Source: Myxococcota bacterium
Lineage (GTDB): Bacteria; Myxococcota; XYA12-FULL-58-9; JALHOP01
Length of the DNA stretch: 28,961 bases
Assembly (NCBI GenBank): GCA_041288095.1
Contig: JBGGMJ010000153.1
Location: forward strand, 1-28,961
Direction of reading: 5' to 3'
Position 1 is the first letter of the stretch. The number at the start of each line of letters is the position of its first letter. Shown here piece by piece: positions 1 to 15,652 of the stretch. The notes beneath the pieces are model-generated. The model had not been told where the DNA came from and searched no databases. It saw only the letters and a program-made list of their open reading frames with translations. Both the position numbers and the translations under genes were made by a program.

Positions 1-3000
1 CGCGCAGCCGGGCGAGGCGCGTGTAGTACGAGCCGATGTCGCCGGCGGCGATGGGGGTGCGCGCAAGCTGCGCAGCTTCGTTGCCTAGAGTCTGCGCGAT
101 CTGCTGGTCGACGCGGCCGATGGCGGCGAGGTTGGTGCGCAAGAGCGCGTCGAGATCGCGCGCGGCGATGGGGCCGAGCTCACGCTGCATGGCGGCGAGC
201 GACGCCCTGCCCTGCTGCGTCTCGAGCATGTTACGGACTGTGACTAGCTCCTGGCGCGCGTGCAGCGCCGCCTCGAGTGGCATCGCACGCGTGCCGGCAT
301 TGCGGGCGTGGACATTCACCTGCGCCCAGCTGCGAAGCTCCACGGGTGGCCGGTTCGAAGCGTGCAGTAAGCGCACGCCACGCTGACCGGTCGGCGCGCC
401 ACTGCCGGGCGTCGGGCCGGGAGTCGGTCGTGGCGGTGGCGGGCCGCGGAGGATCTGTTCGCCATTGCGGAGACGCTCAGCTGTCCGCTCGAGCAGCGTA
501 CGTGCCTGCGCCTCGGTGAGCCGCGCGCCAGCCTCGGCAACGCCCATGCGCTGCAAGAGGGACATGGCGTGTTGCAGAGCCTCGCCTTGGATTTGGACAC
601 CGCTGGCATTGGCGTAAAGCGTGAGCGTCGTCAGCCAGCGCGCCTGCTCCGTCATCGCGGCCACACTGGTCGCTGGGGTGCGCGCCAGAGTCGCGAGGTG
701 ACGGTTGATGCCTTGCGACAGCAGCGCGCGTGCATCGTCGGTCAGCTCGATGACGACGCCCGGCGGGGGCAGCTGGCCGCCCGAGAGATTACCGAACGCG
801 CGCTCCATGCCGCGTAGGTCACGCGCGCCGATGTAGCCACGGAGATTCTCGTTGAGCTGTTCCCAATGGTTCGCGGGCACGCTCGCCATGCCGCCACCGG
901 CGCGGATCATCCATTGCGCGAGGCCCATGACGCCGGCGAAGCCCAAGCCGAAGACCGCGCCGCGCAGCGCATCGCCACCGACCTTGCGGAGCATGTCCTC
1001 GGTGCTCTCGAACTCGACGCCGATGTTACTCGAAGCAGACAGGCCGCCCATCACGGTGGCCATGACGACGCCGTTACGAGCGGTGCTCGCCAAGATGCCG
1101 GCGCCCGGAATCACGCGCGCGAGAATAGCGTTGGCCTGTGGCGAGGCCGCTCCGAGGCCGGCGAAGGCGCCATAGGCGAAGCCGCGTGCGCCGCTCGTCA
1201 GGTAACGGTTGTCGCCACCTTGCAGGGGCGCGGTCGCCAGACCCGCGACCGTGCCAACCGCCGCCACCGCCGCGATGCGCGTCGCGACCGTCGTCCACAA
1301 GGCCGCGCTCGGGGCGGCGCCGAGGCCGAAGGTGCCGACGCTGACGGCGATCGAAGCGACCGTCGTCGAGACCAGAATGGTCGTGTCCTGGATCGTCCGC
1401 GCTAGCGCATCGCGCTCGACTTCGAAATTGCGGCGCTGACCCACCAGGCGGCGCACGGCTTCGCCCAAGCGGATTTGCTCGTCCTCGGTGAGCTCCGTCG
1501 CCTGACCCGACGCCTGGCGGCGCTGCTGCACGGCGGTGAGCACTTGAGCGAGGGTCACCTCGAACTGCATGAGGCGCTCTTCGAGGGGCTCGCGCTCGTG
1601 ATCGAATTGCCGCAAGAGCCAAGCGCAACGGGACTGCAAGTCGGCGGTCACCGCGGCGGCGAGCTGGGCGCCGGTTTGATTGGCGGCGTCGGCGTTGGTC
1701 GCATCGAAGCCGGTGAGGAATTGCAAGGCGCGTTGGCGTTCTTCGCCGCGCAGCGCCCCGCGAACCGCGGCCCTGATGTCGGCGGTACCACCAGGTGGCG
1801 CAACGCCGGCCTGCGACATGTGCGCAACCACCTGCTCATAAGCACGTTCGACGCCGCCCAGGGCGACGAAAGGCGTCCGCGATAGCAATGTGCTCACCGC
1901 GGCGGCATCACTTCGCTGCAAAGCGAAGAAGAGCTGCGCGGCCGGAGAAAGGCGACCATGCTCGTCGTAGAGGGGTGCCTCGACGCGTGGTCCGCCGACC
2001 CGCTGGACGATGAGAGCGGCTTCGCTGTTGGCGCCACAAAGCTGTGCCACATGTTGGTAGAGCGCACTGGGGTTGGCCGCGGGGTCACCGCCGCTGAGCT
2101 GCGCCGCCGTCTGGTTCATGATGGCGAGCTCTTGGTCGTTGAAGAGCTCACCGTCGGTCCGCTTCAGCAGACGCGCGATCTCGCGCGGGTCACGGCTCCC
2201 GAGGATGCGCCGGGCGATCCCCGCCGGCTCGTCCGGACTCGCGTTGTCGCGGCGGACCACGTGCACGATCGGGTCGTTACCGAGGCGTTGGAGAATGGAA
2301 TCGAGGGGCGTGCTGCTCGCGCGCGCGGGGTTCGTGCGGAAGTCGGCGTCGACCACCTGTTGCCAGGTGGGAGTGCCGGTCTCGGTGCTGCCGACGAGAC
2401 GCAGAGCGGCGCGCAGGCCATCGTTGTCGCGAGCGCGGGCGCGGAGGGTCAAGGCGATGTAACGAGCCGCGGCGGTCGGATCGCTGCGCGTGCCCAGAAG
2501 GAGCGCCTGGTAGCGCAGCATCTGATCGCCGTCGAGCATGGAGAGGGCGCGGGCGTCGAGACTGCCGCCGTGATCACGGCCAAAGCCGGCGTTGAAAGCC
2601 GCCGTGATCGCCGCCATCTGCTCACGGCTGCGACCCTCGAAGAGCTTGAGGAAGTCCTCACCGGTGGCGACCGTCGCCTGCGAAGCGATCTCGAACGCGC
2701 GGCGCTCGGTACCCGGCGGCATGCGCAAGATCGCGAGCATGCGGTCGCGCTGAGCTCCGCTAAAGCCGCCGGTGACGTTCTTCCAGCGCGCGTATTCGCT
2801 GTTGACCATGTCGGCCAGCGGATTGCTGCCGGCCGGTGCCGCTTGAACGGCGCCGTCGAGGGGCGCGGGTCGTCGATGCGGATAGACCATGTCGGCGATG
2901 CGGCCGACGATGCCGGGGTTTCCGGGGTCATGGCTGAAGCGCGCGTTCGAAACCATGCCCGCGGGATTGGCGCCCGCGCGGCTCGCGATGACCGCGTTGG

Positions 3001-4063
3001 CGGCGTCGACGCCGATGGTTTCGACGATCTCCCAGAGCGCGTCTTCGAAGCTCGCGTCAGCGGTGCCGACGCCGGCATCGAGTTGCATGAAGCCGCGCTC
3101 GCGGTATCCGATGGCGGCGAGGACGGCGCGGATCGGCGGGCTCACCTGACCGTCGAAGGGCGTCGATTCGTCGTTCCACACGTATTCACTGGCGCGCAGG
3201 ATGTCGCGGCTCGAGAGACCCGAGGCGCGGAGATCGGCGATGAGCTGCCACTCGTTCTGGGACTGCGCGGCGGCGGCATAAGCGCGGCGCGCGTCCTGGT
3301 TGGTCCAATCGCCGCTCGCCATCATGGCGTAGACGATGCGTAGGACGTTGTCGCGGTTGCCGGCGCGGAGCTCGGTCACGAGGCCCGCGGCGAGCTGTTG
3401 CAGCTGGCTCGGCTCCGTGGTCGGGCCGGCGGGAGCGAGCGCCCTAGCGGCTGCGTCGGGCGCCAGGGCGGCGGGACCTTGAGGGCCGGCGGCGACGACG
3501 TTCGCATCGGCGACGACGAGATTGGGGTCGGGGACCACGGTGTTCGCATCGGCGACGACGAGACTGGGGTCGGGGACCACGGCATTCGCATCGGTGACGA
3601 CGGCAGCCGGCGGCCGCTCGGCTGCCGGGACGTCGAGCGGGTCAACAGTCAGGTCTTGGGTGGGCACCGATTGCGGTCGAGGTCCACGCGCCGGCGGCGT
3701 CGCGATCCGCGGACCATCGGTTGGGCGCGCCCGAACCGTGCCACGAGCACGATCGCTGTCGACGGTGGCAAAGCTATCCGGGGTCAGCCCCCGATAGGCT
3801 TCGCGCCAAACCTGCGCCCGCTCCCCGCCCAGCGATTCTCGCTTGGGCAGCCAGAGAGCCGTCCCAGCGGCGATGCGACGAAAGTCACGGATGCCGTTGA
3901 CCTGCGCGATCGCGGCCAGGACCTCACGGGTGACGGGTACACCGCGGGCGCGCAGAGCCTCGATGACCGAGCTACCGCCGGCCAAAGGCACTGATTCCCA
4001 GTCCGCCTGTCCGGTACTGCCTAACGTCGGAGGCGTTCCCGCGGTAACGGCCCGCTGACTCAT
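1..4063 (-). CDS. Large (>=1354 aa, 3'-truncated) protein: LysM-like N-terminus, annexin-like helical repeats, coiled coil, Gly/Ala-rich hydrophobic block; putative effector/toxin-like protein
   Basis: Not in the ORF track. Manual translation shows no stop codon from ATG 4063 (GGGAGA 4 nt upstream) to the window edge. Starts MSQRAVTAGTPPTLG; LysM-like ...VLAAIAQVNGIRDFRRIAAGTALWLP; ends at the edge ...GDIGSYYTRLARLR. The + strand ORFs here (866, 1475, 1958, 3398) are its antisense shadows. Confidence 0.88.
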   Translation of the reverse strand, partial: MSQRAVTAGTPPTLGSTGQADWESVPLAGGSSVIEALRARGVPVTREVLAAIAQVNGIRDFRRIAAGTALWLPKRESLGGERAQVWREAYRGLTPDSFATVDSDRARGTVRARPTDGPRIATPPARGPRPQSVPTQDLTVDPLDVPAAERPPAAVVTDANAVVPDPSLVVADANTVVPDPNLVVADANVVAAGPQGPAALAPDAAARALAPAGPTTEPSQLQQLAAGLVTELRAGNRDNVLRIVYAMMASGDWTNQDARRAYAAAAQSQNEWQLIADLRASGLSSRDILRASEYVWNDESTPFDGQVSPPIRAVLAAIGYRERGFMQLDAGVGTADASFEDALWEIVETIGVDAANAVIASRAGANPAGMVSNARFSHDPGNPGIVGRIADMVYPHRRPAPLDGAVQAAPAGSNPLADMVNSEYARWKNVTGGFSGAQRDRMLAILRMPPGTERRAFEIASQATVATGEDFLKLFEGRSREQMAAITAAFNAGFGRDHGGSLDARALSMLDGDQMLRYQALLLGTRSDPTAAARYIALTLRARARDNDGLRAALRLVGSTETGTPTWQQVVDADFRTNPARASSTPLDSILQRLGNDPIVHVVRRDNASPDEPAGIARRILGSRDPREIARLLKRTDGELFNDQELAIMNQTAAQLSGGDPAANPSALYQHVAQLCGANSEAALIVQRVGGPRVEAPLYDEHGRLSPAAQLFFALQRSDAAAVSTLLSRTPFVALGGVERAYEQVVAHMSQAGVAPPGGTADIRAAVRGALRGEERQRALQFLTGFDATNADAANQTGAQLAAAVTADLQSRCAWLLRQFDHEREPLEERLMQFEVTLAQVLTAVQQRRQASGQATELTEDEQIRLGEAVRRLVGQRRNFEVERDALARTIQDTTILVSTTVASIAVSVGTFGLGAAPSAALWTTVATRIAAVAAVGTVAGLATAPLQGGDNRYLTSGARGFAYGAFAGLGAASPQANAILARVIPGAGILASTARNGVVMATVMGGLSASSNIGVEFESTEDMLRKVGGDALRGAVFGLGFAGVMGLAQWMIRAGGGMASVPANHWEQLNENLRGYIGARDLRGMERAFGNLSGGQLPPPGVVIELTDDARALLSQGINRHLATLARTPATSVAAMTEQARWLTTLTLYANASGVQIQGEALQHAMSLLQRMGVAEAGARLTEAQARTLLERTAERLRNGEQILRGPPPPRPTPGPTPGSGAPTGQRGVRLLHASNRPPVELRSWAQVNVHARNAGTRAMPLEAALHARQELVTVRNMLETQQGRASLAAMQRELGPIAARDLDALLRTNLAAIGRVDQQIAQTLGNEAAQLARTPIAAGDIGSYYTRLARLR
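3500..3601. repeat. 42-bp in-frame tandem repeat, about 2.4 copies (14-aa unit VV[TA]DAN[AT]VVPDP[SN]L)
   Basis: gttcgcatcggcgacgacgagattggggtcggggaccacggt (3500-3541), gttcgcatcggcgacgacgagactggggtcggggaccacggc (3542-3583), partial attcgcatcggtgacgac. Confidence 0.92.
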
Positions 4064-4170
4064 CCGGTCTCCCAGTCGACCCGCCGGTCGGCTTGGTGTG
4101 TTAAACAATTCCCGGGACACTTCGGACGTTTGGCCGTAGTGACCCCGTCCGCATTATCGGCTGCCGAGGA

Positions 4171-5889
4171 GTGATGTCGCCTAAGACCAAGAAATCGGGT
4201 GTGACACGAAAACAGCCGAGAAAAGCGCGACTTAGCTCGCGCGAGAGCTTGGCGGAGCAACTCGCCGCCGTCCGGGCCATTGGCGAATCGCTCGCCCACA
4301 CCGTCGGTGTCGACCAGTTGCTGGCCCAAGTCGTCGTCCAGGTGACCCGCCTGATGCGCGCCGCCCGCACCACCCTGTTCATTCACGATCCCGAGGCGAA
4401 CGAGATCTGGAGCAAGATCGCCGAGGGCATCGAGGTACGTGAGATTCGCCTGCGGGTCGGTCAGGGCATCGCGGGCTGGGTGGCCATCCATCGCAAGCCA
4501 GCGATCGTCGTCGACGCTTATGCCGACGAGCGCTTCAACCCGGCCGTCGACAAGGCCACCGGTTTCCGAACGCGCTCGGTCGCGGCTGCTCCCCTCCTCG
4601 ATCCCGAAGGGAAGCTCCTGGGGGTGGTGCAGGTGCTCAACCGCCGAGGCGGACCATTCAACGAGCAAGACATGGGCTTGCTCACCGCGATCGCGGCCCA
4701 GATCGCCTTCGTGCTCGAGAACGCCCGGCTGTCCGAAGAGCTGCTCAAGCGCAACCACGAGCTGGATCTGCTCTACGCGCTCGAGCAAGAGGCGTCCGCG
4801 AGCCACGAGGTGCGCGGCCTACTCACTTCGGCCCTGGGGCTGGTGTGCGACCAGCTGAACGCGCGAGCCGCCGCTGTTCTGCTGCGCCCCGCGCGTGGAG
4901 CACCGGTCATCTATCGCCTCGAAGGCAAGCGCGAGCTGTCCGTCGCAGCGGTCACCGCCGACGAGCCGCTCGCCCTAGTCGCCGACTACGGCGCTTCCAT
5001 GCCGGAGCACAGCATCTTGCGCGTGCCTCTGGTCTGGGACCGCCGCATCATCGGCGCGTTCGAAGTGTCGCAACCGGAGCCGCGCGGCAACGGTCGCGCC
5101 GGCTTCGAAGACGACGACATCAAGACGATGACCGTGGTGGCCGCGCAGCTATCGCGCGTCATCACCAACGCCGACGAGCGACTGCAGCGTAACACCAACG
5201 AGCGCTTGGCGGCGGTGGGTCAGATGCTCGCAAGCGTCGCCCACGACCTGCGCACGCCGATGACCGTGGTGTCCGGCTACGCACAGCTGATGGGCGAGGA
5301 GGAAGACGATCCGTCGCAGCGGACATATCGCTGCAACCGCATCCTCACGCAGATCGACGAGATGATGGCGATGATCGGCGACCTGCTCGCTTTCGCCCGT
5401 GGCGACAGCCGCCTGCGCGCCGGCGACGTGAAGCTCGAGAGCCTGGCCGCCGACCTCCAGGAGACCCTACGCCATGCCTGCGACCCACGCGGCATCAAGC
5501 TGGCAATCGAGCGCAAACCGGGCGTAGCTGTCGTGGATCAGGGCCGGGTGAAGCGCATTCTCCACAACCTCGCCAAGAACGCGATCGACGTCATGCGCCG
5601 CGGCGACGGCCTGTTCATCGATCTGCAAACCTCCGACGAGGGGCTTCACCTCACCGTCCGCGATCAAGGGCCAGGCATGAACGAGGCCACACGTGCCCGT
5701 ATTTTCGAGCCCTTCTTCACCGACAAGGCAGGTGGCACGGGCCTCGGCCTCGCCATCGTCAAGCGCTTCGTCGAAGATCATTCCGGGACCATCGCGGTAA
5801 AAAGTGCGCCCGGGCAGGGTACGACGGTCGAGGTGCTCTTGCCGCACGCCGCCCGTTCTGAGAACGATACGGCGATGGGTGCGACTTGA
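4171..5889 (+). CDS. Cytoplasmic GAF-GAF sensor histidine kinase (HisKA + HATPase_c)
   Basis: GAF motifs (GQGIAGWVA, DERFNPAVDKATGFRTRS, GVVQVLNR, FNEQD); H-box VAHDLRTPM; N-box NLAKNAID; G1 DQGPGM; F-box FEPFF; G2 GGTGLGL. No TM helix. Start could be 4171, 4174 or 4201. Confidence 0.93.
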   Translation: MMSPKTKKSGVTRKQPRKARLSSRESLAEQLAAVRAIGESLAHTVGVDQLLAQVVVQVTRLMRAARTTLFIHDPEANEIWSKIAEGIEVREIRLRVGQGIAGWVAIHRKPAIVVDAYADERFNPAVDKATGFRTRSVAAAPLLDPEGKLLGVVQVLNRRGGPFNEQDMGLLTAIAAQIAFVLENARLSEELLKRNHELDLLYALEQEASASHEVRGLLTSALGLVCDQLNARAAAVLLRPARGAPVIYRLEGKRELSVAAVTADEPLALVADYGASMPEHSILRVPLVWDRRIIGAFEVSQPEPRGNGRAGFEDDDIKTMTVVAAQLSRVITNADERLQRNTNERLAAVGQMLASVAHDLRTPMTVVSGYAQLMGEEEDDPSQRTYRCNRILTQIDEMMAMIGDLLAFARGDSRLRAGDVKLESLAADLQETLRHACDPRGIKLAIERKPGVAVVDQGRVKRILHNLAKNAIDVMRRGDGLFIDLQTSDEGLHLTVRDQGPGMNEATRARIFEPFFTDKAGGTGLGLAIVKRFVEDHSGTIAVKSAPGQGTTVEVLLPHAARSENDTAMGAT

Positions 5890-6827
5890 CCACAGCCGAG
5901 GCTCCTGCCGAGCTCCGCGAGCGCTTCGGTCCTTACACGCTTGTCCGCAAAATCGGACAGGGCGGTATGGCCGAGGTCTTCCTCGCGTACCGTGATGGTC
6001 AGCAGCCCGGTACCGCGCCGGTCGTCGTCAAGCGCTTGCACCAAGAGCTCGAGAAGAACCGCGACGCCGTCGACCTGTTCCTCACCGAAGCCGACGTCAC
6101 CCTGCTGCTCGAGCATCCGAACGTCATCCGCGTGCACGACTCCGGCGAAGCCAACGGCCGCTACTACATGGCGATGGAGTACGTGCACGGCAAGGATCTC
6201 GGGCAAATCACCGACCGCATGGTGCAGCTCGGCCGCCGCTTCGATGTCGACATCGCGGTGCACATCGCCATCGAGATGCTCAAAGGCCTCGACTACGTGC
6301 ACCAGGCGAAGACGGTGTCGGGCCGCGCGCTCGGCATCGTGCATCGCGACGTCACCCCGTCGAACATCTACATCTCGGTCACCGGCCAGGTGAAGCTCGG
6401 CGACTTCGGTGTCGCCAAGCTCGTCGGTGTCGAGGGCTGGACGATGGCGGGCTCCTTGAAGGGCAAGCTCGGCTACCTATCGCCGGAGCAGATCGCCGGT
6501 GAGTCGCCCACGCAGGCCATCGACTTGTGGAGCGCATCGATCGTCTTGTTCGAGATGCTTGCGGGCGACCGCGCCTTCGTCGGCGACAACGAGCTCGAGG
6601 TGATGCTGCGCATCAAGGCGGCCAAGGTCCCGAACCTGCGCAAGCTCAACCCGGATGTGCCCAAGCCCCTCGCGAAGATTCTCGAGAAGGCGCTGCACCG
6701 AAAAGAGCGCAAGCGCTTCCAGACCGCGCGCGAGCTGATGGACGAGCTGGTGATTTATCGCACCAAGAACGGTCAAACGTTCGGCGAGGCGCAGCTGGTG
6801 CAGTTGCTCACGCAGCGACTGTCGTAG
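5886..6827 (+). CDS. Hanks-type Ser/Thr protein kinase, catalytic domain only
   Basis: IGQGGMAEVF, VVVKRL, HRDVTPSNI, DFGVAK, KGKLGYLSPEQ, DLWS. TTG start overlaps the histidine kinase stop (TTGA). Confidence 0.93.
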   Translation: MTTAEAPAELRERFGPYTLVRKIGQGGMAEVFLAYRDGQQPGTAPVVVKRLHQELEKNRDAVDLFLTEADVTLLLEHPNVIRVHDSGEANGRYYMAMEYVHGKDLGQITDRMVQLGRRFDVDIAVHIAIEMLKGLDYVHQAKTVSGRALGIVHRDVTPSNIYISVTGQVKLGDFGVAKLVGVEGWTMAGSLKGKLGYLSPEQIAGESPTQAIDLWSASIVLFEMLAGDRAFVGDNELEVMLRIKAAKVPNLRKLNPDVPKPLAKILEKALHRKERKRFQTARELMDELVIYRTKNGQTFGEAQLVQLLTQRLS

Positions 6828-6831
6828 CGAG

Positions 6832-7598
6832 ATGGCGAAGAAGGAGAAGGCCGGGTTCAATTCGCCGTTCGCGAAGCTGAAGACGCTGCCGCCGGAGAAA
6901 CCGAAGGCCGAGAGCCGATCGGTGAAGGGCGATGGGCGAAAGCCGATCGCCGATGGCCGATTACCGAACGCCGACGGCCGAAAGCCGATGGCCGAGAGCC
7001 GTTCGCCGAAGGCCGATTCGGCCGTCAAGGCGGATGTCGGGGTCAGCGCCGCCGAGTCCGATGAGTTCTTACGGGCGATGAGCGACATCGCCCCGATTGC
7101 GGCGCCGAAGAAGCGCGTCGAGCCCGAAAAGCGCCTCGAGTCCGCCCTTCCCGACGACGACACGCTCGCCTTGGCCGAGCTACACGCGTTGGTCGAAGGC
7201 GATACGCCCTTTCATGTCGTCGAGTCCGAGGAGTTCTATTCGGGCGCGGCGCCGGGAGTCAGCCACGAGCTCGTCGACAAGCTGCGCGAGGGTGCCTTCT
7301 CGTTCCGCCGCCACGTCGACTTACACGGCTACACGCGCGACGACGCCAAGACCGCTTTGACGGACTTCATCGCCGCGGCTCGGCGTGACGGCGAGCGCTG
7401 TGTTCTCGTCATCACCGGTCGAGGGAAGAGCTCGCCCGGAGGCATCTCGGTCCTGCGCGAAGCCCTGCCCCGCTGGCTCGGCCGCTTTCCCCTGCGCTCA
7501 CACGTGCTGGCCTTTTGCACCGCGCGCTCGGTCGACGGGGGGCCCGGCGCCTTCTATGTGCTGCTGCGCCGCCTGGGGTCGCGGCCGTACGGCGGTTC

Positions 7599-7602
<4 letters not shown>
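6832..7602 (+). CDS. Smr domain endonuclease (stand-alone SmrA/SmrB-like)
   Basis: EFLRAMSDIAPI N-terminal motif; VDLHGYT; VLVITGRGKSS; DGGPGAFYVLLRR. Confidence 0.9.
6900..7018 (+). repeat. Degenerate 7-bp tandem repeat, 17 units, consensus GCCGA(T/A)N, inside the Smr gene
   Basis: accgaag gccgaga gccgatc ggtgaag ggcgatg ggcgaaa gccgatc gccgatg gccgatt accgaac gccgacg gccgaaa gccgatg gccgaga gccgttc gccgaag gccgatt. Confidence 0.88.
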
Positions 7603-8528
<926 letters not shown>

Positions 8529-8540
8529 CGTGGGGGGGGG

Positions 8541-9890
8541 CTAGCTCTCGCGAACGTCGGCCCAGCGGGTCACCGTGTTGCGGCTGCGCTCCTTGGATTT
8601 GTAGAGGGCGCGGTCGGCGTAATCGATGAGCTTGCGGCCGTCGCGGGAGTCATGGGGGTAAAACGCCACGCCAACGCTGATGGTGAGCTTTCCGTTCGGC
8701 TGGGTCTCTTCCCGCGGGAAGGGCTGCGCCTCGACGACCTGTTGGAGCTTGTGGGCGGTCGCGTAGCCCTCGTCGGCGCCGGTGTCGAGCAGGAGGACCA
8801 CGAACTCCTCGCCGCCATAGCGCGCGATCACATCCGTGCCGCGCAGGTTCAGCGACAAGAGGGCCGCCATGCGCTGTAACAGCTCGTCGCCGGCGCTGTG
8901 GCCGTGCGTGTCGTTGTAGCTCTTGAAATGATCGACATCGAGCAGGATGAGCGCGAACTGGTGCGGATTGCGGGCGCCGCGGCGGAGCTCGAAGTCGAGC
9001 TGCTCCATGAACTGGCGCCGGTTGTACAACCCGGTGAGCGGGTCCGTTTTAGCGAGTCGCTCGAGCTGCTGATTGACCTCCACGAGCTGGGAGTTTGCCG
9101 CCGCGAGCTCGTGCGTGCGCTCGTCGACGCGCTTCTCGAGAGACGCGGTGTAGTCCTCGATGCGCTGGGCCATGGCGTTGAGCTGCTCGGCAAGCTGGCC
9201 GACCTCGTCACGGCTGCGGATGGCCACGCGCGCGGTGAGCTCGCCGCGACTGACTCGCGCCGCCATGCCCTGCATCTTCTCGATAGGGCGCACGACCAAT
9301 CGATGCAGCGTGAGGAAAGCGATGAGGCCGGGGATCGACATCATGACGAGCGCGAACACGAAGACTCGCGTGCGTCGCGCCGCGATGGCGCGCTCGACGT
9401 TCGCGAGACTGAAGGAAGCTCGAATCGTGCCCCAGCGTAGGCCGCTCACCACGGGGACCGCGACTTCGAGGACCGGCTCGCCGCCCTCGACGAGATCGCG
9501 GGTTTGCGGCGCTTCAGCGGCGAGCGCCGTCCGCGTGAACGGATCGTCGTAGACCTTGCCGAACTCCCCCTGGCGCGTATGCGAGACCACGCGGCCCTGG
9601 AAATCGAGGACCGCCATGTGACGCAGATCGAGGCTGCTGGCGGCTTCGGAGAGCTTTACGACGTAGTTGTCGAGCGTCGGGGTGTCGTTGTTGGCCATGG
9701 CGACCCCGCAGGGGATGGCGAACGCCCGGAGCAGTGCCACGGCGCGACTCTCGGTTTCCCGCTGGAGCACGCGCTCCTCGTGGCGGATGGCGGTGAAGCC
9801 ATAGGCGGCCACCGCGACCATCACGACGGAAAGGACGGCAAATGCCAATTTCGCCCGCAGACCCATGGTCGAAAAACCTGGGCCCCCCAT
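8541..9890 (-). CDS. Membrane-bound diguanylate cyclase (TM-periplasmic sensor-TM-HAMP-coiled coil-GGEEF)
   Basis: Two TM helices; HAMP (VRPIEKM...RDEVGQLAEQLNAM); DPLTGLYNRR; DVDHFKSYNDTHGHSAGD; RGTD I-site; RYGGEEF. Start uncertain (9920, 9890 or 9866). Confidence 0.93.
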   Translation of the reverse strand: MGGPGFSTMGLRAKLAFAVLSVVMVAVAAYGFTAIRHEERVLQRETESRAVALLRAFAIPCGVAMANNDTPTLDNYVVKLSEAASSLDLRHMAVLDFQGRVVSHTRQGEFGKVYDDPFTRTALAAEAPQTRDLVEGGEPVLEVAVPVVSGLRWGTIRASFSLANVERAIAARRTRVFVFALVMMSIPGLIAFLTLHRLVVRPIEKMQGMAARVSRGELTARVAIRSRDEVGQLAEQLNAMAQRIEDYTASLEKRVDERTHELAAANSQLVEVNQQLERLAKTDPLTGLYNRRQFMEQLDFELRRGARNPHQFALILLDVDHFKSYNDTHGHSAGDELLQRMAALLSLNLRGTDVIARYGGEEFVVLLLDTGADEGYATAHKLQQVVEAQPFPREETQPNGKLTISVGVAFYPHDSRDGRKLIDYADRALYKSKERSRNTVTRWADVRES

Positions 9891-9935
9891 TAGCTCGATC
9901 CGCCTTCGTGTAGCTACCAAGTAAAATTGTCGGCC

Positions 9936-12900
9936 TCAGGGGCGTTCCTTGGCCGCTAGTACGTTCGCGATGGCGGAATGCATCACCTCGCGCAGCTCCG
10001 CCTCGGCGAGCGGCATCCAACCTCCACCAACCTGCGGCTTGCTCCCGGCGTCGATGAGCGACGCCCTCTCCGGGAATCGTCGGACCGCCGCGCTCTTGAC
10101 CGCGTCGGTCATCTCCATCGCGTCGCTGTGCGCGTAGGAGCGCAGGAAGAACCGGGTACCGGCGATGCCCGCGAGGTTGGCCTCGGGAATCATCGCGATG
10201 ATGACGTCGGAGTGCTGCGCATGGCCGTCGAGACGGTCGAGCAAGAACCCCTTCAGATCGCGGTGGTGGTCGAGGCCGGCGCGCTTGCCCTCGAGGCGCT
10301 CGAGCAACGCGAGCGAGCTCGTGAAGTCGTACTTGAGCTCCGTCGCCGAACGAGGAGCTCCCGGCCCGTGGTCGAACAGACGGGTCGGGCCGCCGCGCCC
10401 ACGTCCCCCGCCGTAGAAGTTGTGACTACCGTAGTTGTTAGCGAGCGCGCGCCTCACCTCGAGCGGAATCTGACCACCGAGCTTCGTGAACGCCGCGGTG
10501 GCGTCCACGCGGGGCGACAAGGCACGGAAGAATCCCAGCGTCGCCTCGTTTGCGTTGGCGAGCGGGCGCGCCGCCCCACCCCATACGTCGGTATAGGCCG
10601 CGACCAGGAGGGGCTCGATGATGTCGCGAGCGCCGCGGCCCTGCAGCCCGACGCTCTTCGGCGGTACGTTGAACTTCCCCGCGTAGACCTGTCCGAGGTG
10701 GGCAACGAGGTCGCCGACCATCTGGCCCGACGACTGCGCTTTCGGATCGACCCAGCTGGCGCTCATTGGCCCCGTGTTCGACCACGGAGGCAGGTCGGCC
10801 TTGTGGTGGTCGATACGCAGCATCGGCGTTCCCTGCGGGAGAGCCTCCGCCGCCCGACCGAAGAAGTAGACGCTATCGACGCCAATCGCGAAACGGGGCG
10901 GATGCGTCGGAAAGATCGTCTGCGCGTTCTCCAGGACCTCGTGAGGCCGCGGCGCGTGGTCGCGTAGATTGCGCGGCAGAGGTTGGCTCATCGCCATGTA
11001 CGCCTCGACCCCCATGCCGCGAAGGGCGCGCACTGTCGCGATAGCGGACATGACCGAGTCGCCATCCAGAGGATGGGCGGGGAACACCGCCGCGTAGTCT
11101 TTCCCCGGTGTCGTCACCGAGGTCGTCGGTGCCTTGAACGGCTTGGGGCGCATCAGCGGCTCGATCAAGCCGCGGGTCGCGTCCGCGAAAGCGGTGGGGA
11201 CGTTGTCGGCATGAGGCGGCCGCATGGGAGCTCGCGACTGCGCGATCACTTCCGCCGCGAGCTGTGCCGCCCGACCCGGCATCGCCTTGTCGCTCACGCT
11301 GTCGAGCGCCGCGAGTGCCTTCTCCATGGTCTCTCGGCGCTCTTTGACCGCCGTCGCCGGAAGCTGACGGTAGTCGCGCAGGTGGCGCTCGACGCGGACG
11401 ACGGCCTCGGGGACGACGACCTTGTTGCCACCGAGCTTTCCGACCGCGCCCATCGCCACCAGGAACTGGAGGTTCGCCGTCACGACCTGTTCGGCGGCTG
11501 CGAAGTCGCCGGTGCGAAGGTAGGCGGCTCCAATACCGACGGCGCTCATCCCCGCGACCTGCTCCGCGGCCTGCTGCGCGATGAGCCTGCCGTTGTGCAA
11601 CCGCAGCCCGAGACTGCCTTGTACCGCGGGTGCGCTTTCGATGTTTCGCAGGAAGCTTCGCGCCCGCACGACATCGAACATCGTCGAAGCCAAGAGGTTG
11701 GTCGTGAACGCCGCCGGTGACCAGTCGGCGAAGCGCTCCTGCCCTATCGCGTCGAGCGCCAGGTTGTTGAGCGACGTGAAGGTGACGGCGTTGCCGACCG
11801 TGGCCGGCAAGGTCTTGAACGCCGCACTTCGAGCGGCAGCGGTGCTCAGACGGCCGGAGCGATATGCGAGCAGCAGCTCGCCCAGCTGAGGCATCCCGCG
11901 CGCGAAGGTCGCTGCGCCGATGCCGCGCGTCGCCATGGCGGCGCCCGCCATCACCCATGTGTTGACCGAATCGAACACGTCGGCGACGCCGCGACCGAAC
12001 TTCAGCAGCTCATCGGCGGTCGCCGCGCTCGCCGTGCGCCGTGTGAGCTCGTCGGCGCGAGCGAGCGCCGCGCGACCGCCGGATTCGAGAAAGGCCAGAT
12101 GCGGCTCGCTCGTCTCCACCGCCCGCAGGCGCTCGACTTCTCTCGTGAGCGCGGCGGTGACCTCGTCGCGCGCCCGGTTCTGGCGCCGGCCGCGCTGCGC
12201 GAGCGACAAGGTGTTCGGATTGACGCTCACGGAGGGCTCCGTGGCCTGAAGGCTGTCGTGCCGCCGCTTGAGCGTGGCCAGCTGGGTCTCGGATAGGCGA
12301 ATCGCGACGGCGGCGAGCTGTGCCGACGAATGCACCAATTCACGCTTGCCGAGCACGCCCTCGGCGATGAGCTGATTGAGCGCCATGGTCAAGCTCGGCC
12401 GTCCCGCGACACCGGTCTCCCCTGGCAGGCGATGCATGCTGCCGCGCGCCCCCGAGCTCATCTCGAGATAGGGCTGGAGAGCCGCCGCGTTCGCAATCAA
12501 GGCGCCGCTCACGCTGCCGCGCGCGAGCGCCGCTTCCGCGTTGTCGAGGTAGATACCCAACAGGGTCGCGGCGGACACGTGCTCGCCAAGCTCTTCGCGC
12601 GCCAACGATAGCACCAGCGGATCGCTGCTCTTGCCGGCGAGCTTGGCGAGTCCCGCGCCGCCGGCGACATGGGCACTCGCTGCTCCGACGTCGATGAGCT
12701 GCGCGTCGAGCGCCGCCAGTTGAGCGCGGTACGCCGACTCCACCGGATCCAGATCCGCGATGAGAGCGGAGATGCGCAGCGGCTTCACCTTGAGATGCGC
12801 CGCGAGGCCCTGCTCGAGCTCGCGACGCTGATGCGTGAGGTCGCGATAGCGGCCCTGCAGGGTCATCACGCGCTCCCAACGATCACGTTGCGCCGGATCC

Positions 12901-13580
12901 GCCATGGCGGCGCGCAGGGTCGCATCGAAGGTCTCGGCGCCTTTCCGCAATAGCGCACGCATGGTCTCGGTAGCGACCGCGGGCGGCTCGGAGGCCGTCA
13001 GGTTTGCCTCGGCTTTCAGAGACCAAGTGACGTCGAGACCGTGCTCGACGACGGCGGCGTTCACAGGGTGGCCGTATTGCCAGGCGACGCGGCTGCGCAG
13101 CACGTCGCGATCCACACGCAGCGTCGTCCCATAACTGCGGGAGGTGAGCTCGAGCTGCTCGCCCGTGATGCGCGTCAGCTCCAAGATTTCTCGCGAATAG
13201 CCCTGACCATCGCGGTCGCGCCGCTCGACGAGGACGCCCTGGCCGAGCCGGAGCTCCGGCCATTGCGCCTCGGGTCTCGCCATCGCGACGAGCTCACGCT
13301 CGAGCCGCTCGCCCGACACCGTGTTGGCCGCGTTCTCGAGCCCATTCACCGCGACCGGCGCTGGCGGCACCGCGGCGACACGCGGCGTTCCACGATCTGG
13401 CGCGGCGGGACGGCCACGCTTCATGACCTCAGCCGCTTGTTCCCGCCGCAGGCGCTCACTCTCCGAGCCGTCGCCGACCGGACTGTGTGCCTCGCCGCCG
13501 TCGAGCGTCTGCACCGGCGCCGGCTCGCGCTTGCGTTCTGTAACGACGCTGGTCATGGAGCGTCGATCGCCTGCAAGCAT
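9936..13580 (-). CDS. 1214-aa protein: unknown helical N-terminal ~800 aa with hydrophobic Gly/Ala block, C-terminal DHH-family phosphoesterase domain
   Basis: DHH motifs in order: AHPLDGDSVMSA, IGVDS, LRIDHH, SSGQMV, AYTD; DHHA1-like tail FLRS...AGSKPQVGGG. Start may be 13556. Confidence 0.8.
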   Translation of the reverse strand: MLAGDRRSMTSVVTERKREPAPVQTLDGGEAHSPVGDGSESERLRREQAAEVMKRGRPAAPDRGTPRVAAVPPAPVAVNGLENAANTVSGERLERELVAMARPEAQWPELRLGQGVLVERRDRDGQGYSREILELTRITGEQLELTSRSYGTTLRVDRDVLRSRVAWQYGHPVNAAVVEHGLDVTWSLKAEANLTASEPPAVATETMRALLRKGAETFDATLRAAMADPAQRDRWERVMTLQGRYRDLTHQRRELEQGLAAHLKVKPLRISALIADLDPVESAYRAQLAALDAQLIDVGAASAHVAGGAGLAKLAGKSSDPLVLSLAREELGEHVSAATLLGIYLDNAEAALARGSVSGALIANAAALQPYLEMSSGARGSMHRLPGETGVAGRPSLTMALNQLIAEGVLGKRELVHSSAQLAAVAIRLSETQLATLKRRHDSLQATEPSVSVNPNTLSLAQRGRRQNRARDEVTAALTREVERLRAVETSEPHLAFLESGGRAALARADELTRRTASAATADELLKFGRGVADVFDSVNTWVMAGAAMATRGIGAATFARGMPQLGELLLAYRSGRLSTAAARSAAFKTLPATVGNAVTFTSLNNLALDAIGQERFADWSPAAFTTNLLASTMFDVVRARSFLRNIESAPAVQGSLGLRLHNGRLIAQQAAEQVAGMSAVGIGAAYLRTGDFAAAEQVVTANLQFLVAMGAVGKLGGNKVVVPEAVVRVERHLRDYRQLPATAVKERRETMEKALAALDSVSDKAMPGRAAQLAAEVIAQSRAPMRPPHADNVPTAFADATRGLIEPLMRPKPFKAPTTSVTTPGKDYAAVFPAHPLDGDSVMSAIATVRALRGMGVEAYMAMSQPLPRNLRDHAPRPHEVLENAQTIFPTHPPRFAIGVDSVYFFGRAAEALPQGTPMLRIDHHKADLPPWSNTGPMSASWVDPKAQSSGQMVGDLVAHLGQVYAGKFNVPPKSVGLQGRGARDIIEPLLVAAYTDVWGGAARPLANANEATLGFFRALSPRVDATAAFTKLGGQIPLEVRRALANNYGSHNFYGGGRGRGGPTRLFDHGPGAPRSATELKYDFTSSLALLERLEGKRAGLDHHRDLKGFLLDRLDGHAQHSDVIIAMIPEANLAGIAGTRFFLRSYAHSDAMEMTDAVKSAAVRRFPERASLIDAGSKPQVGGGWMPLAEAELREVMHSAIANVLAAKERP

Positions 13581-13698
13581 GGTACCACCATGTCACACAT
13601 GGAGAACCGCTTAGACCGTCGAAAGAACGCGAGAATCCTCGCCGCATGCTGAGGTACCCACGCCACGTCTTGTGGGCTATTGCCGTCAGTGATCCTGA

Positions 13699-13727: not shown

Positions 13728-13740
13728 CGCGCGTCACCAA

Positions 13741-13824
13741 GCGGTAGTGGCGGAATTGGTAGACGCACCAGCTTGAGGGGCTGGCGGTCGAAAGACCGTG
13801 TGAGTTCGAGTCTCTCCTACCGCA
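13741..13824 (+). tRNA. tRNA-Leu (anticodon GAG), CCA not encoded
   Basis: Acceptor GCGGTAG/CTACCGC + A; D-loop GGAATTGGTAGAC; anticodon arm CCAGC-TTGAGGG-GCTGG; long variable arm CGGTC-GAAA-GACCG; T-loop TTCGAGT (one T-T mismatch in the T stem). Confidence 0.96.
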
Positions 13825-13875
13825 TTCGACATATTGTTTTTGCCCGCCACCTGAGGCGGGACAGCAAGGCCTCCG

Positions 13876-14346
13876 ATGAACACGCTGATCACCATCATCC
13901 ATGTCATCACCTGCGTGCTCCTCATCCTGGTGGTGCTCCTGCAGTCGGGTAAGGGCGGCGGTCTGAGCTCGACATTCGGCGGCGCGAGCGCCCAGATCTT
14001 CGGCGGCCGCGGCGCGGGCGACTTCATGACCCGCGTCACCTCGGGCGCGGCGATGGTCTTCTTCGTGACCTCGTTCACCCTGGCGACCATCAGCTCGAGG
14101 CAACGCTCGGCGGTCGAGCGCGCTCTCGAGAGCAACAAGCCGGCGGCAACCGACACCACGAGCGACGGCAAGCCGACGACCGATGCAGGCAAAGACGACG
14201 CCGTGAAGGCCAACGAGGGCGAAGCGCCCAAGGCCGAGCCGACGAGCGCCACCGGCACCGCAACGCCGACGACCGACAGCAAGACGGACGCTCCAGCGGA
14301 CAAAGGCCCGGCGGCCCCGCCCTCCAATCCCGACGCCCCGCGCTGA
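13876..14346 (+). CDS. secG: Preprotein translocase subunit SecG with long low-complexity C-terminal tail
   Basis: IIHVITCVLLILVVLLQSGKGGGLSSTFGG...FGGRGAGDFMTRVT...FFVTSFTL. Confidence 0.95.
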   Translation: MNTLITIIHVITCVLLILVVLLQSGKGGGLSSTFGGASAQIFGGRGAGDFMTRVTSGAAMVFFVTSFTLATISSRQRSAVERALESNKPAATDTTSDGKPTTDAGKDDAVKANEGEAPKAEPTSATGTATPTTDSKTDAPADKGPAAPPSNPDAPR

Positions 14347-14362
14347 TCGGGAAGCCGTACCG

Positions 14363-15652
14363 ATGACCGACCTGCTGAGTCTCGCTCCCGATCGCGTCGC
14401 GGCGATGCTGCGTCAGGAGCGCGTTGCCCTCGCTTGGGCGGTTCTCGACGGCGATACCGTACGCGTCTCGCACGATTTCCTCGCGCCTCTCGTCGGGTTC
14501 TTCGCGGATCCGCGCTCGGGCTTTTCGAAGCACGAGGCCGTGTTCTTGCGACCACACGCCGAGCTGGATTTGCTGCTCGGCGCTTTCGTGCACGACACGA
14601 CGCGCGGCGCCGGCGCCGGCGGCACGCGCTTGTGGGCTTACGATGATCTGCGCGGCTATCTGCGAGACGGCCTGCGCCTGTCACAGGGCATGACTCGCAA
14701 GAACGCCCTAGCGGGCCTGTTCTGGGGTGGTGGCAAGGGCGTCATCGGTATGGGACCGGGCGGCAAGCTCGAGGATCGCGCCCAGCGCGACGCCGCCTTC
14801 AATGCGTACGGCGACATGATGACGGCCCTGCGCGGCTGCTACGTGACCGCCGAAGACGTCGGTGTGTTCACCCGCGACATCGCGGCGATCTTCGCGCGCT
14901 CGCGTTTCGTCACCTGCATCCCTCCCGAAATCGGCGGCAGCGGTGACCCATCGCCGCACACGGCGCGCGGTGTGATCGCGGGCATGCAAGGGGCGCTCGC
15001 CTACCGCAAGATGGGGACGCTCGCCGGCAAGACCATCGTCGTGCAGGGCGTAGGCAACGTTGGAGGACCACTGCTGTCACTGCTCTTCGAGCAAGGGGTC
15101 GCCAAGGTCATCGCGAGCGACGTCTCCGAGACCCTGATCGACAAGCGTCGCCACGAGCTCGCCGGCAAGCCCTTGGAGCTACGGTTGCTCGCGCGTGGTG
15201 ACCAATCGATTCTCGCGACCGAGTGCGACGTACTCGCGCCCTGCGCCTTGGGCGCCATCATCGACGCCAAGACGATTCCGCTGTTGCGGACGAAGGTCAT
15301 TTGCGGCGCCGCCAACAATCAGCTCGACGACCCGGCGCGCGACGGACGCGCCCTCCGCGAGCGCGGCATCACCTACGTCCCCGACTTCCTCACCAACCGG
15401 ATGGGCATCGTCAACTGCGCCAACGAGCAGTACGGCTATGTGACGCCGGACCCCGCCATCGAGCGTCACTTCGGCGTCGATTTCCGCTACTCCATCCCGA
15501 ACATCACGCGTGAAGTGCTCATGCGCGCCGAGCGCGACGGTATCCCCGAAGGCGACGCGGCAATCGCCCTCGCCGACGAGTTGGCGCTGGTGCCCCACCC
15601 GATCTTCCCCGGCCGGTCGCGGGCGATCATCCAGGCACTGACACGCACTTGA
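14363..15652 (+). CDS. Glu/Leu/Phe/Val dehydrogenase family (leucine dehydrogenase-like)
   Basis: GGTR, GMTRKNALAG, GGGKGVI, YVTAEDVG, GDPSPHTARGV, VQGVGNVG, PCALG, GAANNQL, YVPDF. Confidence 0.9.
   Translation: MTDLLSLAPDRVAAMLRQERVALAWAVLDGDTVRVSHDFLAPLVGFFADPRSGFSKHEAVFLRPHAELDLLLGAFVHDTTRGAGAGGTRLWAYDDLRGYLRDGLRLSQGMTRKNALAGLFWGGGKGVIGMGPGGKLEDRAQRDAAFNAYGDMMTALRGCYVTAEDVGVFTRDIAAIFARSRFVTCIPPEIGGSGDPSPHTARGVIAGMQGALAYRKMGTLAGKTIVVQGVGNVGGPLLSLLFEQGVAKVIASDVSETLIDKRRHELAGKPLELRLLARGDQSILATECDVLAPCALGAIIDAKTIPLLRTKVICGAANNQLDDPARDGRALRERGITYVPDFLTNRMGIVNCANEQYGYVTPDPAIERHFGVDFRYSIPNITREVLMRAERDGIPEGDAAIALADELALVPHPIFPGRSRAIIQALTRT

Follow-up and report, generated by a model that had tools for sequence, protein, structure and literature searches.

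The 28,961-nt contig JBGGMJ010000153.1 of a Myxococcota bacterium (assembly GCA_041288095.1; contig C153 of the genome labelled G000, which comprises 212 contigs and is 90% complete) was analysed over its whole length, hereafter the window. Two giant open reading frames (ORFs), whose presence an earlier sequence-based note had reported, lie on its minus strand: one of 1373 aa (2..4120) that stays open where the contig ends, and one of 1214 aa (9936..13580). The explanation that best accounts for the data as a whole, and that we consider fairly probable, is that the two encode unrelated modular proteins: giant 1 would be an annexin-type membrane protein, and giant 2 a member of a separate family that exchanges its rear domain.

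The earlier note had placed both proteins in a single family with shared ancestry, and direct comparison spoke against this. The best BLASTP E value was 0.42, and the profile-profile alignment proposed as a check, run with hhalign on 4 v 3, 6 v 6 and 12 v 17 sequences, returned probabilities of 0.15%, 0.15% and 0.24%. Each giant is single-copy, with no paralogue of either in its own genome. A shared upstream motif was not recovered: the longest common word is 6 nt, a length attained by 477 of 500 shuffles, and a promoter motif common to the giants was rejected because this 6-mer is at chance level. What held was the coarse order of regions, which the AlphaFold2 models of giant 1 (residues 20-1219, 12 sequences, mean predicted local distance difference test score (pLDDT) 64.9) and giant 2 (17 sequences, mean pLDDT 59.9) both reproduce as a disordered N-region, a helical core, long helices, a charge-poor block, a Pro-rich hinge and a rear domain.

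The helices quoted as opening the two hydrophobic blocks do exist, but their similarity found no statistical support in BLASTP or hhalign. Likewise, both blocks are poor in charge (9.5% charged residues in giant 1 and 14.1% in giant 2, against 20.0% and 22.5% in the whole proteins), but a membrane-grade segment is present only in giant 1, whose Kyte-Doolittle (KD) hydropathy peaks at 1.82 (residues 915-933), compared with 1.34 in giant 2. A glycine zipper was rejected, since GxxxG is not above shuffles in either block (4 observed versus 4.45 expected in giant 1, 1 versus 1.97 in giant 2). Consistent with the earlier description, neither protein has a signal peptide: there is no N-terminal hydrophobic segment, and the first 19-aa KD windows of at least 1.2 begin at residues 172 (giant 1) and 350 (giant 2).

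The giant 1 gene occupies 2..4063 (minus strand) and is cut by the contig end. The earlier start coordinate of 905 is wrong, because the gene extends to window base 2 and then off the contig. Its missing C-terminus (~102 aa) was found at the end of contig C122 (G000:C122:23763-24068), giving a protein of ~1,477 aa; both the ATG start at 4063 and the missing residues were placed by alignment to full-length relatives. Orthologues of 1474-1493 aa are 70-86% identical and stop-free. The giant 2 gene occupies 9936..13580 (minus strand, stop included); the ORF opens at 13580, and the likely start is M9 at 13556, so that the protein measures 1,206-1,214 aa. Its homologues (1230-1235 aa, 57-59% identical) are also stop-free. 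Judging from these alignments, both giants are real, conserved genes.

The layout claimed for giant 1 stands, although a folded N-terminal domain and a set of annexin-like repeats had been missed. In the model, the N-terminal domain and the helical domain behind the block are both confident. Between them lie a disordered linker, a helical core that is predicted well, long helices and the block itself, which is of low confidence. On the minus strand these correspond to a LysM-like domain at 3743..4036 (beta-alpha-alpha-beta plus helices, pLDDT 79-92; elements E22-26, H33-39, H46-56 and E69-73), a Pro/Ala-rich linker at 3419..3742 (~100 aa, pLDDT 25-31, of differing length among orthologues), annexin-like helical repeats at 1706..3418 (~570 aa), and long, coiled-coil-like helices at 1394..1603 that run into the block (model helices 821-852 and 860-908). 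The long-helix stretch is strongly conserved, as in FDHEREPLEERLMQFEV. The Gly/Ala-rich hydrophobic block (890..1393; 36% Gly+Ala) contains about five predicted helices, namely the membrane-grade segment and four segments at KD 1.27-1.59. Behind it, positions 2..889 encode a helical domain, the Pro-rich hinge (~386-445) and the start of the C-terminal domain.

The assignment of the repeats rests on profile matches, PDB sequences and structural alignment with VIA-align. A profile of the giant 1 core (alignment A7, residues 235-1219), run against 1,835,955,588 representative proteins, gave 17 matches at E<=1e-3 and seven clusters at E<=1e-30; because only seven matches reached the latter level among 1.84 billion representatives, the family is very rare. 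A 484-aa fragment that matches the region behind the block (P0020, E 4e-24) is a further member. Pfam was run on 14 of the 17 matches, all but P0007, P0023 and P0025, and six of these 14, all among the weaker ones, are true annexins (Pfam E 1.4e-17 to 1.6e-142; library-wide profile E 4.7e-14 to 8.4e-4). The family member P0014 just attains the Pfam annexin cut-off, with 25.4 bits versus 25. Against PDB sequences, all 37 matches of the profile at E<=1 are annexins (best 3.2e-5), so the giant 1 family profile matches annexins (PF00191) at the level of sequence. Most of this signal comes from one repeat (profile positions ~150-270), and one annexin is collinear over positions 40-302.

Structural comparison of the giant 1 model also brought up annexins. 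Foldseek returned annexins at probabilities of 0.96-1.00 with a TM-score of at most 0.29, and the top 36 rows of VIA-align (Z 8.2-10.4) are annexins, a giardin or annexin-A2 fusion constructs; the remaining PDZ-series entries we take to be such constructs too, as the titles state for some. The eight-repeat annexin VI aligns across model residues 216-786. A single GxGT-type loop, GVGTAD, is invariant in 4/4 giant 1 orthologues (G352, T353), and by eye the other repeats lack one; in annexins, such a loop together with a distal acidic residue makes up the type II calcium site. At residues ~248-306 (window ~3203-3379), P0022, a protein with five CARD units and a PYRIN unit, is matched five times at profile positions 14-72 (library E 5.9e-10); on sequence this may reflect either a death-fold-like helical unit or a chance likeness of helical repeats. 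The NCBIfam scan of both giants returned no family, and the ESM Atlas held no usable match for giant 1. No phage relatives of giant 1 emerged from a tblastn search of 50,697 phage records or from an IMG/VR scan, in which none of 104 pattern matches was confirmed.

In 3/3 sister genomes, giant 1 is syntenic together with the neighbouring GAF kinase, Ser/Thr kinase, Smr, CxxC and GGDEF genes. Among 401 phylum genomes, the full family is confined to the genus (4/4) and two further genomes from its order. Distant relatives retain the architecture of head, repeats, helix motif and block, and their rears vary. Three of them bear hydrophobic stretches near their C-termini (P0013/P0014 at KD 2.19; P0018 and P0019 by eye), which fits resident membrane proteins.

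We propose that the Gly/Ala-rich block of giant 1 would anchor the protein in the bilayer, that the annexin-like repeats would rest on the face of the same membrane, and that the tethered head could bind a glycan or a partner. Our lean, held at about an even chance, is that giant 1 resides in the cell's own inner membrane and faces the cytoplasm, since no signal peptide lies ahead of residue 900, one relative is strongly hydrophobic in a stretch close to its C-terminus, and the gene is vertically inherited; that it is instead an exported, envelope-attacking effector is a tentative second option.

Bacterial annexins with transmembrane regions and with peptidase and toxin domains, Myxococcales proteins among them, are described in the accessible part of Kodavali et al. 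2014 (PMC3894181). Like giant 1, the proteins covered there combine annexin-type repeats in large proteins with transmembrane regions and extra domains, and count Myxococcota among their hosts; giant 1 also keeps one GxGT-type loop. Giant 1 differs from those described in that part of the paper in its ~570 aa of mostly very divergent, Pfam-unrecognised repeats, its multi-helix Gly/Ala-rich block and its lack of a toxin or peptidase domain. Its LysM-like head sets it further apart: LysM is nowhere mentioned in the accessible text. Among the matches listed in our literature search, no description of the giant 1 architecture was found.

The giant 1 head recurs on other proteins. Its predicted beta-alpha-alpha-beta topology fits a LysM fold. 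Pfam returned no match to it at E<=10, and LysM (PF01476) was matched by 0/8 family heads. A profile of these eight heads (A12) retrieved only four PDB matches, all LysM or wall/chitin-binding (E 0.1-1.9); because these lack significance and Pfam is blind to the head, we call it LysM-like rather than a LysM domain. The profile matches 12/401 phylum genomes; besides giant-1 relatives, it gave weak matches in M23 peptidases. The head also opens a 477-aa protein with a HopA1-family rear (profile E 7.1e-15; Pfam E 6.3e-18) and two short proteins of 333 aa and 266 aa, whose heads in turn match the N-terminus of the giant-2 relative P0011 (BLASTP E 3e-9 and 7e-8); direct profile comparison of the giant 1 head with P0011 was not significant. 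The matches on P0011 and the other proteins therefore indicate a shuffled N-terminal module that joins both families in some members. Giant 2 itself is without a giant-1-type head.

Giant 2 is built differently. Its model opens on a small, beta-rich, SH3-like domain at 12990..13274 (residues 103-197, pLDDT ~90), which Foldseek matched to small beta-barrels. VIA-align (Z 5.8-6.4, 20-23% identity) also paired it with part of the F-plasmid relaxase TraI, the translocation-signal domain (4l0j, 9f0x-9f12); this modelled likeness may reflect no more than a generic SH3-like fold. The helical core with long helices (11994..12968) is kept in distant relatives, and the weakly hydrophobic, amphipathic helical block at 11421..11993 carries the family signature, with the motifs DS..W.M, DWSP and QFLVAM. 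Residues 658-782 (window ~11235-11606) form a predicted four-helix bundle resembling vinculin, alpha-catenin and the lipid-droplet protein TIP47 (Z 7.4-8.1), a generic helical match; the TIP47-type likeness is noted for a possible granule or droplet association of the modelled bundle. The core matched no family in Pfam, NCBIfam or PADLOC. ESM Atlas scores for it stayed at noise level (0.82), and a word-based protein search with its profile brought up no members beyond the three close ones already known. All these features lie on the minus strand.

The rear of giant 2 (9939..11135, minus strand) is likely to be an NrnA-type DHH/DHHA1 phosphodiesterase domain, to judge from sub-threshold Pfam scores, the predicted fold and motifs assigned by eye. 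Pfam DHH matched the whole protein at E 0.027 and the rear alone at E 0.003 (18.3 bits). In DHH/DHHA1 proteins, motifs I-IV are DxD, D, DHH and D, and the DHHA1 consensus is GGGH; giant 2 has DGD839-841, D902, DHH924-926, D998 and GGGW1185-1188, with W in place of H, and these residues are invariant in 3/3 sequences. Seven of the top nine Foldseek rows are NrnA-type (NrnA, Rv2837c, TM1595, B. fragilis Nrn and a RecJ-like protein; probability 0.82-0.99, best E 6.5e-3). VIA-align superposed the rear on the DHH domain at Z 6.0-7.4 and a root-mean-square deviation (rmsd) of 3.2-4.3 over 106-116 residues, with up to 23% identity, so that a DHH-domain fold was found, on a low-confidence model. The best structural matches are M. 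smegmatis NrnA (4ls9), Rv2837c/CnpB (5jju), T. maritima TM1595 (5o7f) and B. fragilis Nrn (3w5w), which share the DGD, D, DHH and D motifs by eye and align at Z 7.2-7.4, rmsd 3.2-3.9 over 106-116 residues and 14-23% identity. These enzymes stand alone at ~320 aa, whereas the domain of giant 2 terminates a 1,200-aa protein and reads GGGW, not GGGH.

A profile of the giant-2 core found the family in 11/401 phylum genomes, in two to three copies in five of them, within ORFs of 1328-3715 aa; the family is sporadic and multi-copy. Tabulation of C-terminal domains, as the earlier note had advised, showed that relatives carry trehalase (E 3e-82), ABC1/UbiB-type kinase (two members, E 9.6e-38 and 6.6e-29), TPR-S/MAP3K_TRAF_bd (E 6.6e-42) or DHH-like rears; 8/11 newly scanned relatives have no recognisable rear, two or three of them being truncated by contig ends. 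The expectation of variable C-termini was thus borne out for each giant within its own family, where front and middle are conserved, but not for one common family. Two relatives from two genera (L047:6691-10656 in G196 and L050:4963-8922 in G212) lie 23-35 nt after glgB of a glgE-treS-glgB row, on the same strand. A paralogue in G196 (L049:5797-9462) is a giant-2 relative fused to trehalase. The placement and the fusion hint at a tie between the family and the metabolism of trehalose and alpha-glucans. A copy with two in-frame stops (TAG and TAA; G006:C115:12497-13822), from a low-GC genome within the order, lies beside two intact paralogues and is probably a pseudogene.

In this genome, giant 2 is the sole content of an inserted segment of 3,790 bp (9906..13695) that is missing at the same site in G001, G002 and G003: in these 3/3 sister genomes nothing separates the GGDEF gene from the tRNA-Leu spacer. 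Both junctions are spanned by contigs of runs X1 and X2, which may be the window's own source, and a chimeric assembly was rejected on the strength of these contigs. A gap of 45 bp separates one insertion edge from the 5' end of tRNA-Leu (GAG; 13741..13824, plus strand). Integration targeted to the tRNA was dropped, as the edge lies at that distance and neither an integrase nor a flanking repeat was seen. The homologues in G001 and G002 sit elsewhere, with DNA identity of 66-67% versus 84-87% in the flanks, at a locus that holds other genes in the present genome. At this corresponding variable spot (G000:C169:36034-37456 and G000:C53:1-700) we observed other ORFs, one with a HEARH (HExxH-like) motif, followed by a contig break; the head of contig C53 contains a direct repeat of ~80 bp. 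A functional pairing of the DHH phosphodiesterase with the neighbouring GGDEF diguanylate cyclase was dropped, given that 3/3 sisters have the GGDEF gene without giant 2. The adjacency is accidental, because giant 2 came in as a single-gene insertion.

We propose that the conserved front of giant 2 would place or regulate the rear enzyme inside the cell, here a putative nanoRNA or dinucleotide phosphodiesterase. The intracellular placement is suggested by the housekeeping-type rears and the glycogen-operon position in the family. The sporadic, mobile and fast-evolving behaviour of giant 2 keeps effector and conflict readings alive.

Several observations weigh against this two-protein account. 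For giant 1, VIA-align Z values near 10 lie in the tool's common range for helical repeats, so that the fold evidence leans on the sequence evidence. Giant 1 itself has no Pfam annexin match (E<=1) and no LysM match, and the PDB matches of its head are not significant. Its block is modelled at pLDDT <50, so that the number and topology of the helices are tentative. The LysM-type fold is normally extracytoplasmic, and the same head occurs on a HopA1-family protein; both favour export. For giant 2, the DHH scores of 15.2 to 18.3 bits fall below the curated cut-off of 28.1, the rear is modelled at pLDDT 30-60 with Foldseek E values of 6.5e-3 or worse, and a profile of the rear domain retrieved no DHH protein among PDB sequences. 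The sporadic spread of the family, its multiple copies and its fast divergence (57-59% identity versus 72-98% for the neighbours' orthologues) would also suit a conflict or effector role.

The best-surviving alternative, which we nonetheless hold to be unlikely, is that both giants, without shared ancestry, are exported effectors that act on the envelope of another cell and leave by the non-flagellar type III system or a route encoded elsewhere. Spelled out, and no more likely in this form, the head of giant 1 would grip peptidoglycan and its repeats the membrane, the block would insert or perforate, and the giant-2 family would deliver enzymes. The lack of signal peptides, the merely moderate hydrophobicity of the segments, the variable rears of both families and the TraI likeness of the giant 2 beta domain are all in its favour. 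The genome also encodes a non-flagellar type III cluster (G000:C92:8671-25958, locus L105) with SctJ, SctN, YscO-like, FliK-like and FliG_M-like genes, as well as an FHIPEP gene. Tabulating co-occurrence with secretion systems, another check suggested earlier, thus confirmed type III genes but was uninformative, because FHIPEP, the type III export gate, is near-universal: it occurs in 349/401 phylum genomes (a tally that includes the unpublished G195), compared with 12/401 for the head and 11/401 for the giant-2 core. TssC and the phage sheath were found in 0/5 genomes tested.

The idea of a common carrier draws its best support from the shuffled head module, which recurs on the HopA1-family protein, on both short proteins and on P0011 of the giant-2 family. 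It is weakened by the uninformative co-occurrence and by the breadth of HopA1: this Pfam family also matches Corynebacterium glutamicum, the tool's control, and is therefore not specific to type III secretion. Polymorphic toxins and other modular effectors resemble both families in their constant front and variable rear and in a head shared by otherwise different proteins, and a constant N-terminal part with variable C-terminal domains was indeed found. They differ in that the families of the giants lack a toxin-type rear, an immunity gene, linkage to secretion genes and a known trafficking domain. The rears are metabolic or sensor types, and no toxin-type cargo with an adjacent immunity gene was found; behind giant 2, only 30 bp without an ORF remain before the insertion edge. 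Type III translocators and transmembrane effectors, like the giants, have no signal peptide and have long helices ahead of moderately hydrophobic ones, and a type III system is at hand in the genome. The giants are far larger than such membrane-inserting proteins, have no chaperone gene nearby and, across the searches made here, matched none of them in sequence or fold. The position of two giant-2 relatives in line with glgE-treS-glgB, the C-terminal segment of P0013/P0014 at KD 2.19 and the vertical, single-copy inheritance of giant 1 further argue against export, and the export hypothesised in the earlier note found no backing in their rears or surroundings.

A narrower version of export, which strikes us as quite improbable, would make the head an undescribed N-terminal delivery or targeting module of one Myxococcota order, marking signal-peptide-less proteins sent out, possibly via the needleless type III route, against the envelopes of other cells. 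Giant 1 would then be an envelope-spanning effector, with the head on the wall, the repeats on the membrane and the block perforating it.

It is still more doubtful that the giant-2 family forms a single-protein conflict or defence system, in which a sensor or enzyme rear would be coupled to a membrane-acting front. Its sporadic, multi-copy distribution, its insertion at a new site together with its divergence from the genus homologues, and the TPR-S rear of one relative suit such a role; TPR-S is described as a sensor of conflict systems, for which our literature search returned no paper. However, PADLOC, run on 13 proteins, matched 0/10 of the giant-2 family, its sole match being a chance-level DrmC (E 0.0048) on giant 1. 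The family shows no NTPase, nuclease or other usual effector domain, giant 2 has no membrane-grade helix, and the position behind glycogen and trehalose genes in two genera is operon-like. Finally, the earlier reading of the giants as one ancient family whose sequences have diverged past recognition is largely refuted and highly improbable: the same coarse order, the charge-poor blocks and the giant-1-like head of P0011 would fit it, but similarity was absent from BLASTP and from hhalign at up to 12 v 17 sequences, the cores are unlike (annexin-like repeats versus a beta domain plus long helices), hydropathy and conserved motifs set the blocks apart, and the common head is a shuffled module that giant 2 lacks.

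The rest of the window agrees with its earlier description as free of secretion genes: a Pfam scan of 17 neighbouring ORFs returned no secretion-system family, and the identities obtained include two kinds of kinase (GAF histidine and Ser/Thr), Smr, a GGDEF protein and glycolytic enzymes. The sCache-HAMP-GGDEF gene downstream of giant 2 (8541..9920, minus strand) probably starts near 9884. In this stretch (window 9875-9920), its listed TTG start (9920) falls within the inserted segment, and relatives align only from residue 4-16 on. A 316-aa ORF at window 13734-14684 (minus strand) overlaps tRNA-Leu(GAG) and the glutamate-dehydrogenase gene, has no Pfam match and is conserved in relatives only partly; it is probably not a gene. 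Elsewhere in the genome, the type III cluster L105 is interleaved with large unknown ORFs, one of which encodes a 779-aa DUF4781 protein, possibly a type III substrate. The type III genes of two sister genomes (G001:C2 and G002:C2) are accompanied by flagellin genes and a 536-aa FliF, an unusual trait in bacteria classified with the myxobacteria. G000, at 90% completeness, yielded neither.

Bacterial annexins are known from sequence analysis only, and giant 1 offers a concrete protein in which an annexin role in bacteria could be tested. The export reading would matter because no effector of the Myxococcus needleless type III system is named in the accessible part of Herrou et al. 2025 (PMC12075869); if the shared head were an export tag, the proteins bearing it would be candidates for the effectors of contact-dependent myxobacterial predation left unnamed there. 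The giant-2 family, in which a Pfam-blank core bears a trehalase, an ABC1 kinase, a sensor TPR or a phosphodiesterase, would represent a novel means by which myxobacterial cells position enzymes.

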